A stretch of 57,857 nucleotides of DNA, from contig JAFUZE010000298.1 in the NCBI GenBank assembly GCA_017476765.1, forward strand, positions 1-57,857, given 5' to 3'. The position numbers and the translations under genes are program-made. Of the stretch, positions 1,921-35,137 are shown piece by piece (positions within the stretch are counted from its first letter, which is position 1; the number at the start of each line of letters is the position of its first letter). Origin of the DNA: Lachnospiraceae bacterium (GTDB lineage: Bacteria > Bacillota > Clostridia > Lachnospirales > Lachnospiraceae). A model generated the notes under the pieces. The model did no database searches and was not told the DNA's origin. It saw nothing but the letters and a program-made list of their open reading frames with translations.

Positions 1921-4419
1921 TTATGCCTTCTTAATCTTTACCTTTGAAGAAAGTCCTGCCTTCTTCAGTTCTTTTTTGTACTTCGCAAATTTTGACTTCG
2001 GCACTTTGATCGTCGCCTTATCGCTGATTCCCTTAAATGCACCCTTGCCGAAGCTCTTGATCTTCGTGCTCTTGATCGTAATGGTCTTTAAGTTCTTACA
2101 GCCGTTAAACGCATTCTTGCCGACGGTTGTCACATTCTTGCCAACCGATACGCTCTTAAGCTTCTTAGCTCCCTGGAACGCACCGCTTCCGATCGTCTTG
2201 ACACTGTCACCCTTTACGGTAACGGTCGTTAAGCTCGTGCAGTTCTTAAAGGCATTGTTTCCGATTGTCGTCACATTCTTACCGATCGTGACCTTCTTAA
2301 GCTTTTTAGCTCCCTGGAAGGCGCTGCTTCCGATCGTCTCAACGTTTTTGCCGACAGTTACGGTCGTGACGTTTTTTGCATTCTTGAATGCACCGTTTGC
2401 GATGGAGGTCACCTTTGCCTCGGTTCCGTCTGCCAGCGTTACCGTCTCCGGAATCGTGACCGTCTTTGCGCTCTTCTTATTTGTAGAAACATACTGTACC
2501 TCGACATCGCCGTCCTCTGTGGATGTCACCTTGTAATCTGCCGCTCCGGTGCTGTCCGTTTCCTTTGTGCCCACATCCGGTACGTCAAGCTTTGCGATCG
2601 CTTCCGTCCTGGTTGCTCCGCAGACCGTACAGGTATAGGTTTTAACACCCTCTGCACTTGCCGTCGCCTCTTTCGTCACAACACCTGCGTTCCAGGTATG
2701 TGCCGCGCTCTGTGCCTTCTCACCGCATACCGTACATTCCTTCCAGTGATTTGCAGTATCATACTTCCAGGTATTCGGGTAAATGTGTGTGTGTGCTTTC
2801 TTAAACTCAATATAGCACCAGAACCTGACGCAACCGTCGTCGTTGCTCCACTGTTCATCATATTTGAATGAAATCGGGAAGGTCACCGTCTTGTCGGTAT
2901 ATGCGGTTGCCGCCTGCAGCGGATTCGTTTCCATTTCCACATAATTTTGAAGTATGGTCACCTTTGCGCTCTTGCCCTCATAGCCCGCCGGAATCTGAAT
3001 TGTGAGCGTTCCGTTTTGGGCGATATCCGGATTATGCGTATGCTCCGCAGAGTTCACCAACGCAATAATGTCGTATGACAGTAAAATATCGTATCCGTTT
3101 TCTATAAACACATAATCCTTGAACGGATCCTCGTAGCCCGGATCAGACTGTCCCTGCTCCTGTTCGCTACTGTTCATATATCCCTCAAGAACCGTAGCCG
3201 ACGCACTCCTTGTCGTCTCATCCACATAGAAATCAAATTTTTCCTCCGTGTTCAGGGTTAAGGATGTACCGACATTCACCTGTGTACTCTGCGACTCACT
3301 GCCGTAATAGCCCTGATAAAATTCCAGCGGCACCCTCACGCTGTTCGTATAAGTCATTGCCATCTTGCTGTCAACGGAAAAGTTCACTGCAAGGGCACTA
3401 TCGTTATCATACGGAAGGCTGACCTCAAACGTTACCGTATCTGCCGTTGCGGTTTTTGCAGGGATGCCTTCGTCCTCCCCCTCGAATGTCAGGACGCACT
3501 TGTTTCCGTCATATCCCGATGCCAGCGGGAGCGTCAATGTGCCTTTGCGCGGCTGTGTGTTCCCTTCCTCATCATAATAATCGAGCGGTATCTGCAGACT
3601 GTACTTGCTTCTGTTCTGAAATCCCGACGGAACATCGTATGCGTTGTTATTTGTCAGACGTACATAGGCGGAACTATACTCGCTGATATACTGATCATTT
3701 ACAAACAGCGCACTCTCCGGCTGAAAGACTGCCTTGTTGCCCGAGCTGTCCGGTATATAATCATGTGAATACGCATCATATACGCAGACCGGAAGTGTGA
3801 CCGGTCCTAACCGCTCGGGTGTCACGGCATGCCTTAGGCTGATCGAAAAGTCTGCCGTCAGCCAGCCGTTTTCACCTTTTAACGTAATCGGATAGCTTGC
3901 CGTACTGTCCGTATGGGCAGACGGTTCGATATCCGCCTCTCCACTGTTCAGCCATGTGATCTTGGAATTTTCCGTACTGTAACCGTCCGGAATCGGAACG
4001 GTGACCGTGCCTGCACACTGTGTCATTTCCTTATCGGTAACGGCAATTCTGACATTATACTGTAAGCTTCTGTAGATGACAGAAGTATCGTCCAGCCTCA
4101 GCCTTGCAACACCATTCTCACTTACTGTAAGCTCCTCTCCGTCATCCGGCACAAACAGACCGGTCGCTCCGTCAACGGGTGCATCTCTGACGAGCTTGAC
4201 CTCATACTCCTGCGTATCACCGTTTTCATCCGTGTAGCTCTCCGTTTTTGTGCCGTATACCTCCGGCTTATACACCGAAAGCTCAATGCCGTTCCCATCA
4301 CCTGCTGCCGCCTGCGCGCTTAATGCAGTCGCCGGCAAAAGGGTGATAACCATGCACAGACAGAGCATCCATGCATTCACCTTGCGTATGAAATTGTTTT
4401 GTTTAAACCTTTCCATCAT
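1921..4419 (-). CDS. Cell-surface protein with repeated beta-rich modules and C-terminal BspA-type leucine-rich repeats
   Basis: 832-aa ORF with GGAGGAGG RBS. Signal peptide ...LLPATALSAQA. Several ~130-aa modules share GT(L/V)T(I/V/L)P(I/L)xxGY (TVTVPIPDGYS, TLTLPLASGYD, TLTIQIPAGYE). A Cys-containing segment reads HWKECTVCGEK...TYTCTVCGATRTE. About eight LRR units follow, such as VTIGKNVTTIGNNAFKNCTSLTTVTV, then a K-rich tail. Confidence 0.85.
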   Translation of the reverse strand: MMERFKQNNFIRKVNAWMLCLCMVITLLPATALSAQAAAGDGNGIELSVYKPEVYGTKTESYTDENGDTQEYEVKLVRDAPVDGATGLFVPDDGEELTVSENGVARLRLDDTSVIYRSLQYNVRIAVTDKEMTQCAGTVTVPIPDGYSTENSKITWLNSGEADIEPSAHTDSTASYPITLKGENGWLTADFSISLRHAVTPERLGPVTLPVCVYDAYSHDYIPDSSGNKAVFQPESALFVNDQYISEYSSAYVRLTNNNAYDVPSGFQNRSKYSLQIPLDYYDEEGNTQPRKGTLTLPLASGYDGNKCVLTFEGEDEGIPAKTATADTVTFEVSLPYDNDSALAVNFSVDSKMAMTYTNSVRVPLEFYQGYYGSESQSTQVNVGTSLTLNTEEKFDFYVDETTRSASATVLEGYMNSSEQEQGQSDPGYEDPFKDYVFIENGYDILLSYDIIALVNSAEHTHNPDIAQNGTLTIQIPAGYEGKSAKVTILQNYVEMETNPLQAATAYTDKTVTFPISFKYDEQWSNDDGCVRFWCYIEFKKAHTHIYPNTWKYDTANHWKECTVCGEKAQSAAHTWNAGVVTKEATASAEGVKTYTCTVCGATRTEAIAKLDVPDVGTKETDSTGAADYKVTSTEDGDVEVQYVSTNKKSAKTVTIPETVTLADGTEAKVTSIANGAFKNAKNVTTVTVGKNVETIGSSAFQGAKKLKKVTIGKNVTTIGNNAFKNCTSLTTVTVKGDSVKTIGSGAFQGAKKLKSVSVGKNVTTVGKNAFNGCKNLKTITIKSTKIKSFGKGAFKGISDKATIKVPKSKFAKYKKELKKAGLSSKVKIKKA

Positions 4420-4720: not shown

Positions 4721-6529
4721 ATGGAGTTTGCTAAAAAGGTAGAATACTTACTCGATACACTTGGCGCTTCCGCCAATGACATTGCGCAGTATGCCGGATG
4801 TGACAGGTCAAATATCAGCCGGCTGAAAAGCGGTGCAAGGATTCCCAGACCGGCAAGCCCAACCGTCTCCAAGTTCCTTTCGGGCATTTATGCCTTTGCA
4901 AAGGATCAAAATAAGCTGGATTCGCTCTGTGTCGTCACAGACTGTGAGCCGGGGCTTTCGGCGGAAGCGCTCAGAGAGCATCTTTCCGCATGGCTGTATG
5001 ACGGAATTGTTTTTACCGAAACGAAAAAGAGTCCGGCGAAGAGGGAGACCCTGTTTCGTTCCTTTGGCGAAAAACTCGATGCGGTAATGAATCTGGCAGA
5101 GCTTTCCAACATCCGGCTTGCAAGGCTTGTCAATGTAGATGCGTCCCTGATCAGCCGTTTTCGTAACGGACTGCGTATTCCCAAATCAAATCCCGCACTC
5201 ATTCATCTGATTTCCGAGACGTGTTTTGTGCGCATCTGCGATCAGGGACATCTCGGCAAACTTGCAGCCTTAATGGGCGTTACGGACGATATGCTGGAAA
5301 ACAGCGAGGACGGACTTGAGTGGTTCAGCAGCTGGCTGTGCGATTTTAATCCGGAGGACGGCAGCATCGCCGTTGAGGAGCTGCTTGACCGAATCGACTC
5401 TTTTTCTCTGAGCACGAAAATTCCTCTTATGTCGCTTGAGCAGGCGGCGGATGCCGAAATACGAAAGGACCGGTCGGAGGTCTATTACGGGACGGATGGG
5501 CTGCGCCGTGCGGTAATCCGTTTTTTATCCGATGCGGCAGGCGGGCACGCAAAGGAGCTTTTGCTGTATTCCGATGAGGGGATGGATTGGATGGTCGGTG
5601 ACAGGGATTTTTTAGTTCGATGGCTGTCGCTCATGCATGCATGTATCCGTGCGGGCATCCGAATAAAAATCATTCACAACATCGACCGGGATTTAAAGGA
5701 AATGATCGCTGCCATTAACAGCTGGCTTCCGCTGTATATGTCCGGTTTGATCGAGCCATATTACTGTCAGCGCAAAAATACCGGCATGTTTTCCCATACG
5801 CTTTTCTTATCGCCGGACTTTGCTTGTATCGAAGCATATCAGGTCAGCGGTGCAAAGGCAGACGGAATCTACCACTACTGCACGCAGGAGCAGCAGCTGA
5901 AGAGCTATCGCTCCTTTTATGACAAAATGCTTGACGAATGCAAACCGCTTCTGCGCACAAGCGCCAACCCTCTATCCGGCAAAAAAGCGGCAGAGGTCGG
6001 CGCAGGGCACGGGATACATGTACTGCAGAGCACGTTATCGCTTGCAACGATGCCGGAGGACATTGCTAAGTCCGTTGCCCTGCGCATCCTACCGGATGAC
6101 CAAAGGGCAGCTTTTTTGTCCGAGTGGAAGCTGTCGAGGGAAATTTATGCGGAAAAGATGAAAAACGAGTTTGTTTATGAGTGTATCACAGCTGCAGACG
6201 AGGAGCTCCTGTCTCACAATCAGGCAATGGCGGATACTTCCGTTGCAGATGCCTGTTACACACCGGATGAGTATGCACGCCATATGGAGCATATGCTACG
6301 CCTGTCGGAGCAATACCCGAATTATCGGTTCTATGTATTGCCGGAGACTCTGTTTGCCAATATCAAAATCATCGTCGAGCCTGCGGAGGTCGTTATTGAG
6401 CACCTTGCCGAACCGAGAATTACCTTTACGCTGACGCATCCGCTGATGTGCAGGGCATTTTTATCGTATATGGAGGGCTTACAGACACGGTATCAGCCCG
6501 GTCAAAGTAAGCTCCGGCAAAAGCTGTGA
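4721..6529 (+). CDS. Large transcriptional regulator with two XRE-like HTH segments and an uncharacterised C-terminal domain
   Basis: ATG 4721 has a GGAGGGAG RBS; the track start 4697 is TTG. Two HTH-like segments: NDIAQYAGCDRSNISRLKSGARIP and ARLVNVDASLISRFRNGLRIP. The remaining ~450 aa have no motif I recognise. Confidence 0.7.
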   Translation: MEFAKKVEYLLDTLGASANDIAQYAGCDRSNISRLKSGARIPRPASPTVSKFLSGIYAFAKDQNKLDSLCVVTDCEPGLSAEALREHLSAWLYDGIVFTETKKSPAKRETLFRSFGEKLDAVMNLAELSNIRLARLVNVDASLISRFRNGLRIPKSNPALIHLISETCFVRICDQGHLGKLAALMGVTDDMLENSEDGLEWFSSWLCDFNPEDGSIAVEELLDRIDSFSLSTKIPLMSLEQAADAEIRKDRSEVYYGTDGLRRAVIRFLSDAAGGHAKELLLYSDEGMDWMVGDRDFLVRWLSLMHACIRAGIRIKIIHNIDRDLKEMIAAINSWLPLYMSGLIEPYYCQRKNTGMFSHTLFLSPDFACIEAYQVSGAKADGIYHYCTQEQQLKSYRSFYDKMLDECKPLLRTSANPLSGKKAAEVGAGHGIHVLQSTLSLATMPEDIAKSVALRILPDDQRAAFLSEWKLSREIYAEKMKNEFVYECITAADEELLSHNQAMADTSVADACYTPDEYARHMEHMLRLSEQYPNYRFYVLPETLFANIKIIVEPAEVVIEHLAEPRITFTLTHPLMCRAFLSYMEGLQTRYQPGQSKLRQKL

Positions 6530-31604: not shown

Positions 31605-31810
31605 TCTCCCTCAAAAATACCGACCTGTACTTCCTTCAAAATGCAAATCTGTACTTCCTTCAAAGCCCCGGAGCATTCGCACAAAGGCTTTCTGATTCGT
31701 TATACATCGTTTCCGCTCATTCGTCAACCGAAAGCACAAAAAAGGGCATTGCCCTGATGACCGCAATCAGTCATTCCCGCAATACCCTTTTTATGCTATG
31801 CTGTTTGTAC

Positions 31811-32194
31811 TCAGCCTGCCTTATCCCATGCACAGATGCTTATGTACACATCGTTATAATCCTCATCATCGTAGTCCTCACCGGCAAGCAGAAAGCTTAT
31901 TCCGACTTGTTTGCCTGTCGTGGCGGATGAAATATAACTTGTGTTGTGCCATGTCTCAAGCTTGTTTGCATTTACCGATTCAATATCGATCTTTACCTTC
32001 TCGGCTTTGATAAAAGCGCTGCCCTGTCCGAGCGGCGGATCGATATTTGTACTTTGTTTTGAGCCCTCAAGGTAGACATTTCCCGCTTCATCGTAAAGCT
32101 TTACCTTGATTTTATTCCCCGCCTGCGTTGTTATGAACCAGGACATATACTGACCTTTCTTAAAACCATCCAGAATCAACGTTTTTTTAGCCAC
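31811..32194 (-). CDS. LecB/PA-IIL-like calcium-dependent lectin homolog (127 aa from GTG 32194)
   Basis: The C-terminus FLLAGEDYDDEDYNDVYISICAWDKAG matches the LecB Ca-binding loop and terminal Gly (LecB: FALVGSEDGTDNDYNDAVVVINWPLG, recalled from memory). Mid-protein GSKQSTN resembles SGQSTNN. GTG 32194 follows an AAGGAAAAGGGGG RBS and overlaps the TenA-like stop. Confidence 0.7.
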   Translation of the reverse strand: MAKKTLILDGFKKGQYMSWFITTQAGNKIKVKLYDEAGNVYLEGSKQSTNIDPPLGQGSAFIKAEKVKIDIESVNANKLETWHNTSYISSATTGKQVGISFLLAGEDYDDEDYNDVYISICAWDKAG

Positions 32195-32948
32195 AGCTTT
32201 TTCCCCCTTTTCCTTCGATTGCTTCGTGATAAGCTTCTGTGAACGCAGCAAGCTCATAGTTCATAGACTTTGAGAAAATTTCACCTGCGAGTGACTCGTC
32301 AAATTCTTTTCCGTCCTTCTGCCATGCGTCAATAAAGTTTCCGATTTCATAGGCACTGTCATAAGAATCCTCACCGGAATAGTTTCCTTCAAACCAATCC
32401 TTGTAAACGCCCGGTTCATAATCACTGCTTTCTTCGATCTTCTGTGAGAACCATGGCCAGAGGTAATAACAAGGCAGCATGGCAACCAGTGTATAAATCG
32501 GCGGATATGCGCACATGACATGATGCTCATGTTCTGCATATGCCATCATCGTATCCGTCGGATTGACACTGTCGGCAGTGCGGATATGCCAGTCACGAAA
32601 GAATGTGCTGTTGTATTCTTCATACCCCTCATATTGAACTTCGACGAGACGTTTCAGATCCGGATATTCCTTGTCGTCGATCTCGGACAGTAAGGACAAC
32701 AATGTGTCTGCCGCACGGTAGCAGTAATAGGAATCGAGTACGGTAAGACAACCATAGTCCTGCGGATTCAAAACTCCATGCTTCATCGCCTGCAGATACT
32801 TCGTATCTATGACAGCATTTGCGACGTCCAGATTTTTTTCAAACACCCGAAAGAAAAAGCTGTCCTCCGGCGGCTTCGCAGTCCGTACCTGCGCACCCTT
32901 TTGCAGACGCGCCGTAAACCGGATATTTCTTGTATAAATTCTGTTCAT
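32187..32948 (-). CDS. TenA/thiaminase-II family protein
   Basis: GVLNPQDYGCLTVLDSYYCY, AMLPCYYLWPWF (conserved Cys), YKDWFEGNY and NYELAAFTEAY parallel B. subtilis TenA motifs (GTLPIDRFKYYVLQDSYYL, LLPCYWLY, YQKWIGTYGG, YYEYQFWGMAY). Confidence 0.7.
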   Translation of the reverse strand: MNRIYTRNIRFTARLQKGAQVRTAKPPEDSFFFRVFEKNLDVANAVIDTKYLQAMKHGVLNPQDYGCLTVLDSYYCYRAADTLLSLLSEIDDKEYPDLKRLVEVQYEGYEEYNSTFFRDWHIRTADSVNPTDTMMAYAEHEHHVMCAYPPIYTLVAMLPCYYLWPWFSQKIEESSDYEPGVYKDWFEGNYSGEDSYDSAYEIGNFIDAWQKDGKEFDESLAGEIFSKSMNYELAAFTEAYHEAIEGKGGKSCG

Positions 32949-33141
32949 TGCTATTCATCCCTCATATCATACGCTTATAGTGGCTCCACGGAAGCTATTG
33001 TTTAAATATACTGTTATATTGTGTCGACATTGATATTGTATATCAAATGCAATATAATGTCAATAATTGTCAGTCAATATAAGGCAATTAAATATGGGGT
33101 GTGTTTTACTCCTTATCTCATATCGAACCACCCTGTGAATC

Positions 33142-33215
33142 GCAGCAAATAATCTCCGGCGGGTGCAGCAAATAATCTTCGGCAGATTGTAACAAATAAT
33201 CGCAGGCAGATATAC
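33142..33215 (+). repeat. Three ~24-bp direct repeats (iteron-like) abutting a promoter
   Basis: GCAGCAAATAATCTCCGGCGGGT / GCAGCAAATAATCTTCGGCAGATTGT / AACAAATAATCGCAGGCAGATATAC. The core CAAATAATC starts at 33146, 33169 and 33193. Confidence 0.6.
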
Positions 33216-33382: not shown

Positions 33383-35137
33383 ATGAGAAAATTAGAACAA
33401 TTACTCCGGGAGACCGACCACAAGGGGTATCCCGCATACAAGCAGCTGAAGGGGCGGTATCACTTTCCCGCCTTTGAGCTTTCGATCGACCATGTGCAGG
33501 GAGATCCCTTTGCGGCGCCCTCCTCTGTCAGCCTGCGGATTGCACCCGGTGACCACGGTATCCCAAAGGAATATTATGAAACGCCGCACAGACGCATCAT
33601 GCTTCAGGATTACCTGCTCCGGAGCTTCGGACGGGAGCTTGCCAAATATGATCACCGGGCAAAGGGCTCCGGCAAGAGCGGTACGCTGTCTGTCAGCCGC
33701 TGCCGCCAGGAGGTGCTCGAGCGTTCCGCACTGCAGATCGACCCTGCTTCCGGTCTTTTGACTCTGCGCCTTTATGCCGGCTTTCCTGCGGCGGGACGCA
33801 CGACGCTGTCAATGGAATTAAAGAAGATGCTGATGGAGTACATTCCCGACTGTGCTGCCCGCTGCCTGCGCTATGCTGCGATCTCAAAGCCTGCTCTGCT
33901 TAAATGGATCCGGCTTTCCGATGACCAGCAGAGCATCCGCAGCCAGCTTTCCGAGCAGGGACTTGTCGCCTTCGTGGCAAACGGCGCTAATCTGCCGAGA
34001 AAGAGCGGTGTGGACGATACCCCGATGAAGGGCTCCGTTCCCTTTACGAGCCCGAAGGAAAATGAAATTACGCTGACCCTTCCGGAAGGGCGCACCATTA
34101 CAGGTATGGGCATCCGCAAGGGAATCACGCTGATCGTGGGCGGCGGTTATCATGGAAAATCCACGCTCTTAAAAGCTCTGGAGAGAGGTGTCTATAATCA
34201 TATTCCGGAGGACGGGAGAGAATATGTGATCACGGAATCGACGGCGATGAAGATTCGTTCCGAGGACGGACGCAGCGTCAAGCAGCTGGACATCAGTCCG
34301 TTTATCCGCAATCTTCCGAACAACAAGGACACCACCTGCTTTTCCACAGAGGATGCCAGCGGCAGCACGTCCCAGGCGGCAAATACGGTCGAAGCCGTTT
34401 TATCCGGCAGCAAAACACTCCTGATCGATGAGGACACCTGTGCCACGAATTTCATGGTGCGCGATGAGCTGATGCAGAAGGTCGTTTTGCAAAGTCAGGA
34501 GCCGATTGTCCCATTCCTGCACCGGATGCGGCAGCTTTACGACACGAAAGGAATTTCCACGATACTCGTGGCAGGCAGCTGCGGGGCATATTTTGCAGTG
34601 TCGGATCACATTTTACAGATGAAGGAATATGAGCCTTCGGATATTACAAAAAAGGCAAAGGAAGCGGCTGAGGAATTCGCAGATGTACATGCAGGAAAGA
34701 CGGAAGCTTCCGATTATGATGCGCGAAATACGGAAAGAAACGGAGCAGCGGCTCCGCCTGATGAACTGAAGGATTGGCAGGATAAGCGAATCCCGCTTGC
34801 GAACAAAAACGTCACGGAAAGTAAAAAAGTCAAGGTCAAAGGAGCCGGCACCGATGCGGTCATCTTAAATCATGAGTCGGTGGAGCTTCGGTTCGTCGAG
34901 CAGGTGGTGGATTCCGAACAGACCAATCTGCTCGGAACAATGCTGCGCTTTTTGGAGGAGAACCGCTTTAACGGAAAGACCCCGCTGACCGATTGTGTAA
35001 ACAGTGTGTATCAGGCTTACTCCTCACAGAGCTTTGGTGCGGTCACTCCGGGACATGCCGTTCCGGGAAATCTCGCAGAGGTGCGCGTGCAGGAGCTATG
35101 GGCGATGGTAAACAGATATCGGGGATTAAAGCTGTAG
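33383..35137 (+). CDS. ABC-class ATPase domain protein (COG3044-like, uncharacterised)
   Basis: 584 aa. Walker A-like GGGYHGKSTLL, LLIDEDTCATNF (Walker B). N-terminal pattern DHKGYPAYKQLKGRY is typical of predicted ATPases of the ABC class. Confidence 0.8.
   Translation: MRKLEQLLRETDHKGYPAYKQLKGRYHFPAFELSIDHVQGDPFAAPSSVSLRIAPGDHGIPKEYYETPHRRIMLQDYLLRSFGRELAKYDHRAKGSGKSGTLSVSRCRQEVLERSALQIDPASGLLTLRLYAGFPAAGRTTLSMELKKMLMEYIPDCAARCLRYAAISKPALLKWIRLSDDQQSIRSQLSEQGLVAFVANGANLPRKSGVDDTPMKGSVPFTSPKENEITLTLPEGRTITGMGIRKGITLIVGGGYHGKSTLLKALERGVYNHIPEDGREYVITESTAMKIRSEDGRSVKQLDISPFIRNLPNNKDTTCFSTEDASGSTSQAANTVEAVLSGSKTLLIDEDTCATNFMVRDELMQKVVLQSQEPIVPFLHRMRQLYDTKGISTILVAGSCGAYFAVSDHILQMKEYEPSDITKKAKEAAEEFADVHAGKTEASDYDARNTERNGAAAPPDELKDWQDKRIPLANKNVTESKKVKVKGAGTDAVILNHESVELRFVEQVVDSEQTNLLGTMLRFLEENRFNGKTPLTDCVNSVYQAYSSQSFGAVTPGHAVPGNLAEVRVQELWAMVNRYRGLKL

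Follow-up and report, generated by a model that had tools for sequence, protein, structure and literature searches.

A predicted LecB-fold calcium lectin encoded in overlap with a BtTenA-like thiaminase gene in a Lachnospiraceae contig

The stretch of Lachnospiraceae DNA analysed here (contig JAFUZE010000298.1, 57,857 nucleotides (nt); hereafter the window, always at its full length) carries on its minus strand two overlapping genes, the first encoding a TenA-like protein of 253 amino acids (aa), a predicted thiaminase, and the second a 127-aa protein that we propose to be a calcium-dependent lectin of the LecB/PA-IIL type (Table 1). The GTG of the small gene lies 5 nt upstream of the TAA that ends the TenA-like gene, which gives an overlap of 8 nt (GTGGCTAA). 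The junction, on the minus strand, reads GAA GGA AAA GGG GGA AAA AGC TGT GGC TAA, with the small gene beginning at the GTG in GTGGCTAA and a Shine-Dalgarno-like GGGGG ahead of it inside the TenA-like gene. A first-pass annotation of this DNA, made from the letters without database searches, had proposed this GTG start and an internal ribosome-binding site, and the homologues agree: each of the 20 aligned small-protein homologues has an initial M-A/S-x-K in line with this GTG. Residues 2-7 of the small protein form a confident beta-strand in its AlphaFold2 (AF2) model, which argues against a start at the internal ATG (MSWF). A 148-aa version of the small open reading frame (ORF), extended to an ATG (from 32257), was rejected; the extension is unconserved, and homologues have stops that interrupt the upstream frame. 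That the small ORF is not a chance frame follows from homologues in at least five phyla and from 14 invariant positions among 21 close relatives.

A promoter-like site and a terminator-like hairpin, both pattern matches from a consensus scan, together frame the pair as a two-gene unit, over which the G+C content is slightly lower (0.43-0.46) than in the flanks (0.49-0.58). The Firmicute host proposed in the first-pass annotation is consistent with the window's Shine-Dalgarno-led genes and with one neighbouring gene whose relatives at 90% identity come from rumen Lachnospiraceae, Acidaminococcaceae and Succiniclasticum; at this level of clustering the proteins of the window, a contig of NCBI metagenome type, are mostly singletons.

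Table 1. Coordinates of the features discussed. Positions without a prefix are those of the window; those with a prefix are positions in the locus named before the colon.
Feature	Position	Strand	Description and basis
TenA-like gene	32948-32187	minus	253 aa, ATG start, TAA stop 32189-32187; ORF list
Predicted LecB-fold lectin-like gene, BT_3145 family member	32194-31811	minus	127 aa, GTG start 32194-32192; ORF list
Shine-Dalgarno-like GGGGG inside 3' end of TenA-like gene	32207-32203	minus	8 nt before lectin GTG; direct reading
Promoter-like site TTGACA, 17 nt, TACAAT	33063-33035	minus	11/12 matches, ~87 nt upstream of TenA-like ATG; consensus scan, pattern match only
Terminator-like hairpin AGGGCAATGCCCT (31755-31743), then T run TTTTTGTGCT	31733..31755	minus	56 nt past lectin stop; consensus scan, pattern match only
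Asp72 codon of TenA-like gene, equivalent of Asp44	32733-32735	minus	profile alignment to 1TYH
Cys160 codon of TenA-like gene, equivalent of B. subtilis TenA catalytic Cys135	32469..32471	minus	profile alignment to 1TYH
Glu232 codon of TenA-like gene, equivalent of Glu205	32253-32255	minus	profile alignment to 1TYH
Gln24 codon of lectin-like gene	32123..32125	minus	family-invariant; profile alignment to 7F9F sets it opposite thrombocorticin Gln25
Codons of putative two-calcium loop, E106-D-Y-D-D110-E-D112-Y-N114-D115	31850..31879	minus	GAG GAC TAC GAT GAT GAG GAT TAT AAC GAT; hhalign
C-terminal Gly127 codon of lectin-like gene	31814..31816	minus	12 residues after last loop Asp; proposed carboxylate ligand of neighbouring subunit's calcium
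Giant surface-protein genes of one Firmicute-type clade	L045:6098-10762, L047:6174-10280, L048:4634-10236, L051:4887-10151, L002:1-7191		
Dockerin type I + C-terminal lectin domain; GLUG-repeat + C-terminal lectin domain	L013:5581-6369, L020:5557-6366; P0068, P0113, P0145, P0149		

The upstream protein belongs, by its sequence, to the BtTenA (BT_3146) subclass of TenA_C thiaminases, and its enzyme activity is predicted. The Pfam model TENA_THI-4, which the first-pass annotation had suggested running, is passed barely (22.6 bits against a cut-off of 22), whereas the NCBIfam model salvage_TenA stays far below its cut-off (27 bits against 130), so that the protein is no equivalog of canonical TenA. 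Against the Protein Data Bank (PDB), phmmer matches it to 2A2M (BT3146) at E 5.3e-38 and the family profile reaches 1e-53 with 2A2M/2A2O, while canonical TenA structures reach only ~1e-6 with that profile. Its AF2 model (predicted local distance difference test score, pLDDT, 90) likewise finds 2A2O/2A2M best in Foldseek, at a target-normalised template-modelling (TM) score of 0.85-0.87 and 32% identity, with canonical TenA structures next at 0.77-0.83. Alignment to 1TYH pairs LPCyyLW with LLPCYWL, vlDayY with LQDSYY and nyElkvF with YYEYQFW, and none of the three residues Asp72, Cys160 and Glu232 varies among 34 relatives. We also considered a stretch of the form E-H-E-H-H as the di-iron site of a heme-oxygenase-like oxidase, and dropped this reading because the histidines vary (HEHN in P0042, FEHS in P0046, HERR in P0048) whereas the TenA Asp, Cys and Glu do not. 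BtTenA itself founds the new TenA_C subclass, across which the Cys and Glu are conserved, and it degrades thiamin in cell-free extract (PMC10277260); in vivo it is enriched in the extracellular vesicles of B. thetaiotaomicron (PMC10277260; PMC12071298).

For the small protein, LecB homology is assigned because of structure and motif together, and not because of a Pfam model or a sequence search alone. The AF2 model, built with a 21-sequence alignment, is a nine-strand all-beta fold with a pLDDT of 95.9. All 26 of the 26 PDB structures that Foldseek matches to it at E<1e-3 are lectins of the PA-IIL superfamily (TM 0.57-0.77, E 5e-8 to 6e-5), namely thrombocorticin, LecB (three strains and mutants), CV-IIL, RS-IIL, BC2L-A and BC2L-C's C-terminal domain, and the match ranked after them falls to TM 0.33. 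A phmmer search of the PDB with the 127-aa protein returned a designed repeat protein as its sole match (E 0.05), which we judged to be noise; the family profile searched against all PDB sequences gave nine matches at E ~1, all of them to thrombocorticin or LecB and at the calcium loop. The modelled fold thus supports the small protein being a LecB/PA-IIL-type homologue at the level of fold and calcium loop, the beta-sandwich that the first-pass annotation had expected a structure prediction to return. The LecB sequence cited in that annotation is correct, the copy used here being 100% identical to PDB 1OUR_A, and the C-terminus FLLAGEDYDDEDYNDVYISICAWDKAG and mid-protein GSKQSTN that it quoted are present in the ORF translation; the resemblance that it saw between GSKQSTN and LecB SGQSTNN was not recovered by any alignment.

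The motif lies in the putative two-calcium loop. Hhalign of the family against LecB aligns 16 residues (LecB residues 94-109) and pairs E106, D107, D110, D112, N114 and D115 with LecB E95, D96, D99, D101, N103 and D104, the same matching of ligands as had been drawn up at first, and these six residues are invariant in the 21 relatives. In LecB the ligand loop consists of E95, D99, D101, N103 and D104, with D96 contacting the sugar, and N21 and S22-S23-G24 belong to a second loop that provides a further ligand and the specificity. Outside the calcium loop, Gln24 of the small protein lies in a beta-hairpin of the AF2 model, and we infer by analogy that it would be functionally equivalent to thrombocorticin Gln25, where the substitution Q25K abolishes sugar binding (PMC9700728).

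At the other end of the protein, the tail after the last loop Asp is exactly 12 residues long in 117 of the 133 representatives with a canonical loop (88%), 86 of 122 representatives end in Gly, and in most of the listed multidomain proteins the domain sits at the extreme C-terminus. A tail of fixed length together with C-terminal placement is the pattern expected of a free-carboxylate ligand, and from the sequence a terminal-carboxylate geometry equivalent to that of LecB is plausible. In thrombocorticin, the partner protomer supplies the C-terminal carboxylate that completes Ca-1, and a protein lengthened by one C-terminal Gly binds fucose less well and has lost its agonist activity; more generally, a LecB-type calcium site binds sets of adjacent hydroxyls and no protein-specific epitope (PMC9700728).

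The two genes are found together well beyond the window. Of 44 lectin loci, 14 have a TenA-like gene next to the lectin gene; it stands directly upstream in 13 of these and downstream in the other, L007. The synteny looked for in other Clostridia is thus present there and reaches further, since the paired loci (Clostridia-type metagenome contigs, Syntrophomonas, Flavobacteriaceae, Saprospiraceae, Chitinophagaceae, Prevotellaceae, Ardenticatenia and Aeromonas) span Clostridia, Bacteroidota, Chloroflexota and Aeromonas, with stop-to-start distances of -34 to +45 nt. In further Firmicute-type loci (L045 and L048-L052) the lectin gene again follows the TenA-like gene, the genes overlapping in L045 as they do in the window, and all but one (L046) of the Firmicute-type TenA-like genes whose contigs were inspected carry the lectin. 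Single chains in which the TenA-like protein is followed by the lectin also occur, P0042 (379 aa) and P0046 (386 aa), and the L047 DNA bears out the second of them; these fusions fall in two 90%-identity clusters and possibly stem from one ancestral event. The 8-nt overlap, the internal Shine-Dalgarno sequence, the promoter-like and terminator-like sites on either side, the synteny and the fusions were counted for a functional link. If the adjacency were instead fortuitous and the roles of the two genes unrelated, each family would be expected to occur without the other, as indeed both do; however, the order and short spacing kept across several phyla, the fusions in two clusters and the gene overlap in the window and in L045 already disfavour coincidence, which we regard as very improbable.

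Two further apparent fusions, both artefacts of extending the frame from the end of a tblastn match, were rejected: in L010 an in-frame stop ends at position 5982, and in L031 the TenA frame runs 34 nt into the lectin gene. A further sequence, P0080 (236 aa), is a chimera in which the N-terminal half of a TenA-like protein runs directly into the last two thirds of the lectin; it probably reflects a deletion or faulty assembly rather than a functional fusion.

The pairing has a record in the literature. Stentz et al. (2023) described BT_3146 followed by a gene of the BT_3145 type, encoding 125-142 aa, in Bacteroides, Prevotella copri, Aeromonas and Chloroherpeton, termed BT_3145 'uncharacterized ... 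no identifiable domain', offered no rationale for the pairing and found only one Firmicute TenA homologue (PMC10277260). The first-pass annotation was right that no rationale had been described and had missed that the pair itself was already on record. The small protein of the window is 47% identical (E 4e-23) to WP_042041974.1 of Aeromonas rivuli (locus L019), which lies downstream of a TenA-like gene and is listed as a BT_3145 homologue in Table 1 of that paper (PMC10277260); through this protein, and so transitively on sequence grounds, the window protein is a member of the BT_3145 family. Our literature search found no paper joining thiaminase with PA-IIL. What is new here, then, is that the 'domain-less' BT_3145 family is, on the structural models, a LecB-fold predicted calcium-lectin module that would serve a thiaminase, and other enzymes, as subunit or C-terminal domain, the gene pair as such having been recorded in 2023.

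Taken as a whole, we read the locus as encoding a calcium-dependent lectin subunit that targets or anchors a thiaminase, a reading to which we give a little better than an even chance. It would be a self-contained two-gene operon whose first gene encodes a cysteine-dependent TenA_C-type thiaminase or aminopyrimidine hydrolase of the BtTenA (BT_3146) subclass, and whose second gene would be translated by coupling from the GTG overlapping the stop of the first. The second product, a predicted 127-residue beta-sandwich of the LecB/PA-IIL-DUF4114 superfamily, would bind two calcium ions through its E-D-x-x-D-x-D-x-N-D loop, its free C-terminal carboxylate completing the site of the neighbouring subunit, and the bound calcium would hold a sugar with fucose- or mannose-like hydroxyls. 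Associated with the thiaminase as a carbohydrate-targeting or anchoring subunit, the lectin could then concentrate the cleavage of vitamin B1, or of its pyrimidine precursor, at a glycan-bearing surface, whether the wall or vesicles of the producer, a competitor or host mucus. Calcium and sugar binding by the small protein is put forward by analogy with its relatives, and that the two proteins associate physically and that their complex acts outside the cell at a glycan-bearing surface are further steps that we infer; thiaminase activity and vesicle export are taken from the literature on BtTenA, and calcium and sugar binding from that on LecB and thrombocorticin, all of them relatives of the window proteins.

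Several observations weigh against this reading. Neither window protein has a signal peptide, which in a Gram-positive cell leaves export unexplained, and free cytoplasmic calcium is low. An Rfam scan of the whole window found no TPP riboswitch and no other Rfam family, and no thiamine gene is among the genes neighbouring the pair in the window. A TenA neighbour is missing from about two thirds of the lectin homologues, and the lectin from at least one TenA-like gene (L046), so that, with unpaired members in both families, the partnership would be facultative. The family's 12-residue tail is two residues longer than that of LecB (10), thrombocorticin having 11. With hmmscan the small protein has no match to Pfam PF07472 (PA-IIL) at E<=1, the very check by which the first-pass annotation had proposed to judge its assignment, and the assignment then falls to structure and motif; among the 21 relatives, 2 match PF07472 (best E 0.011), and precomputed protein-database annotations assign it to the window protein as well as to several relatives, with the grade 'weak' wherever a row is graded. 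The top Pfam match is instead DUF4114 (PF13448), at 22.6-23.4 bits (E 1.2e-4) over model positions 2-83 of 85 and below the gathering cut-off of 27; 19 of the 21 relatives match this model at E<=10 (best E 9e-6). Finally, the published activity of BtTenA is low and comes from a crude cell-free extract (PMC10277260).

The wider family bears on what the domain might do. It is rare: scanned in full with HMMER, 1.84 billion representative proteins yielded only 242 members at E<=1e-3. Named genomes with a member include Oscillospiraceae, Lachnospiraceae, Syntrophomonadaceae, Lacrimispora and Defluviitaleaceae, further Bacteroidales, Segatella copri, Prevotella, Chitinophagaceae, Saprospiraceae and Flavobacteriaceae, and also Spirochaetaceae, Deferribacteraceae, Ardenticatenia and Aeromonas. 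The idea that such lectins belong almost exclusively to Proteobacteria does not hold for this family, with its members in many Clostridia, Bacteroidota, Chloroflexota, Spirochaetota and Deferribacterota. Two adenosine-deaminase proteins (P0187, 619 aa, and P0198, 611 aa) and one cytidine/MafB19-type deaminase protein (P0156, 553 aa) end in the LecB-fold domain, so that together with the TenA fusions three kinds of amino-heterocycle hydrolase bear it; none of these deaminase and TenA fusions has a signal peptide. It also stands at the C-terminus of dockerin type I proteins, in metagenome-assembled genomes of Lachnospiraceae and Bacteroidales, and of GLUG-repeat proteins (Table 1), and one family member, P0203, has a signal peptide; the dockerin-lectin proteins and P0203 show an extracellular role of the family in some hosts.

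These architectures could also be read quite differently, with the LecB-like domain as an intracellular module that binds or senses a small molecule such as ribose or another cis-diol ligand and thereby recruits substrate to, or regulates, hydrolases of amino-substituted heterocycles. The adenosine and cytidine/MafB19-type deaminases to which the domain is fused hydrolyse, like TenA, substituents of aminopyrimidines or aminopurines, the fusions being without signal peptide, and recognition of adjacent hydroxyls by a LecB-type calcium site (PMC9700728) would suit such a ligand. However, dockerins, GLUG repeats and a signal peptide are extracellular contexts typical of true lectins, the characterised relatives are all glycan binders, and neither thiamine nor its pyrimidine carries a sugar; we consider an intracellular sensor unlikely, if worth keeping in mind.

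Other arrangements of the domain were noted in passing. Two lectin copies occur in some genomes, adjacent in L023 (6384-6734) and L027 (2565-2912) and ~1.3 kb apart in L034 (4347-4721) and L039 (7701-8081); in L023 and L027 the second copy is the N-terminus of a ~600-aa protein without Pfam match. An 816-codon open frame in L014 (3901-6348) runs from a metallo-beta-lactamase/alkyl-sulfatase into the lectin with no stop between them and may be an enzyme-lectin fusion or two genes in frame, and P0162 combines the lectin, here N-terminal, with a metallo-beta-lactamase domain.

The surroundings of the pair differ between loci. In one Firmicute-type clade a giant surface-protein gene (Table 1) begins 10-16 nt after the TenA-lectin pair, the called genes overlapping in L045; its products run from 1368 to more than 2444 aa and carry LRR_5/MBG_2/YDG, Big_2/Ig_Eae or Flg_new repeats. 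A resolvase or serine recombinase precedes the pair in this clade, with a TetR gene directly upstream as well in L048-L050, and L002 has a 2480-aa Flg_new/SLH/LysM protein directly upstream. No TetR gene and no giant surface-protein gene adjoins the pair in the window.

Gene neighbourhoods of this kind allow for a TenA-like protein that is mainly a non-enzymatic regulator, controlling neighbouring surface-protein genes as an anti-repressor in the manner of LysR2, a TenA-family activator that sequesters a repressor (PMC12817078). L048-L050, where the pair stands between a TetR-family gene and a giant surface-protein gene, would fit such a role; however, the catalytic Asp, Cys and Glu are kept throughout the 34 relatives, the closest characterised relative has thiaminase activity, and the window pair lacks both neighbours, and we give a regulator of this sort little credence. 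The recombinases beside the Firmicute-type pairs, a patchy distribution that looks like horizontal transfer, and the position of the small gene immediately downstream of the enzyme gene and overlapping it recall instead toxin-immunity pairs with overlapping genes, in which case the small protein would be an inhibitor, immunity protein or chaperone partner that silences a potentially harmful thiaminase in the producer. Covalent fusion to the enzyme is nevertheless unusual for an immunity protein, the small protein is also met by itself, in tandem, and attached to dockerins and to enzymes of other kinds, and its most conserved residues are the calcium ligands of a lectin rather than a variable interface. 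PADLOC gave no match for either protein, on which ground a role in anti-phage defence was also rejected, and an immunity partner seems to us improbable.

A bolder generalisation can be framed, although we hold it to be speculative and doubtful. The BT_3145-type lectin domain might be a portable C-terminal 'address label' on enzymes that destroy small nitrogen-heterocycle metabolites (to date a thiaminase, adenosine deaminase and cytidine deaminase), attached as a co-translated subunit or by fusion. The result would be a hitherto unrecognised class of lectin-guided antimetabolic effectors that, sent out for instance on Bacteroides vesicles, would deplete vitamins or nucleosides where a competitor or host displays its glycan coat, and that in Firmicutes would lie on recombinase-associated islands beside giant adhesins.

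Around the pair in the window, the intergenic region from which the TenA-like gene and an ABC_ATPase-family gene (33383-35137) diverge contains three tandem 24-nt direct repeats (33141-33211, consensus TGCAGCAAATAATCT..GGCAGAT, spacing 23-24 nt), which may be a binding array for a regulator. Downstream of the terminator-like hairpin, two tandem imperfect 24-nt repeats (CTCCCTCAAAAATACCGACCTGTA and CTTCCTTCAAAATGCAAATCTGTA, 31606-31653) lie directly upstream of the start of a MATE efflux gene (31604). The window also encodes, ~27 kb from the pair, an 832-aa BspA-type leucine-rich-repeat (LRR_5) protein (1921-4419, minus strand), whose repeat type is that of the giant proteins after the pair in L048 and L050; no link to the pair is established.

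BT_3145 and ~240 representative relatives, annotated as hypothetical, gain from this analysis a candidate role as LecB-type calcium lectins. Thiamine availability shapes gut and aquatic ecosystems, and a lectin-addressed thiaminase, if true, would alter the view of competition for vitamin B1 and offers a possible targeting mechanism for BtTenA-type thiaminases, some relatives of which are in animal genomes. The LecB fold is a drug target in Pseudomonas and Burkholderia; its predicted reach would now extend to anaerobic Firmicutes and Bacteroidota and to use as a module appended to enzymes.

Among known systems, LecB/PA-IIL of P. aeruginosa (PDB 1GZT, 1OUR), RS-IIL, CV-IIL, BC2L-A and the BC2L-C C-terminal domain share with the modelled window protein a nine-strand beta-sandwich of ~115-130 residues (TM 0.62-0.77). 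With LecB, the window protein has in common the identical calcium-ligand pattern E-D-x-x-D-x-D-x-N-D, the C-terminal Gly, the Trp near the end and the lack of a signal peptide. The lectin domain of BC2L-C is C-terminal, and a C-terminal position in larger proteins is common to it and the window family. In contrast to these likenesses, structural alignments with the LecB group give 12-18% identity, sequence alignment covers 16 residues, PF07472 is unmatched, the specificity loop N21/S22-S23-G24 of LecB is replaced by T-Q-A-G/A in the window family, and the window lectin is genetically coupled to an enzyme.

The best structural match is thrombocorticin (7F9F; E 5e-8, TM 0.70-0.71), a calcium-dependent fucose/mannose lectin of a sponge. 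Thrombocorticin is not known to have an enzyme partner. Its profile aligns over the full length, including Gln25 with Gln24 and the D-x-D-F/Y-N-D loop, whereas identity is 16-17% and the first loop ligand of thrombocorticin is Asn-Asp with a longer insert. Thrombocorticin is a homodimer (PMC9700728). DUF4114, the sub-cut-off top Pfam match of the window lectin, is regarded in the literature as a module akin to PA-IIL that binds sugars in a calcium-dependent way (PMC9109919; PMC11934332); in Myxococcus PilY1.1 and in the Acanthamoeba mannose-binding protein AcMBP-1 it is the N-terminal domain of a larger surface protein, while members of the window family stand alone or are C-terminal.

Of the BT_3146/BT_3145 pair of B. 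thetaiotaomicron, BT_3145 is of the same family as the window lectin and takes the same position directly downstream of a BtTenA-like gene, and to its record we add the predicted LecB fold, many Clostridia members and the fusions. BtTenA (2A2M/2A2O) has in common with the window enzyme the catalytic Cys and Glu and an N-terminal extension that is absent from canonical TenA, the Firmicute clade being 30-39% identical to the enzymes of Bacteroidota and Aeromonas. Putting two papers together, the tenA-like thiaminase I of zebrafish (PMC9839694) may belong to the BtTenA subclass as well.

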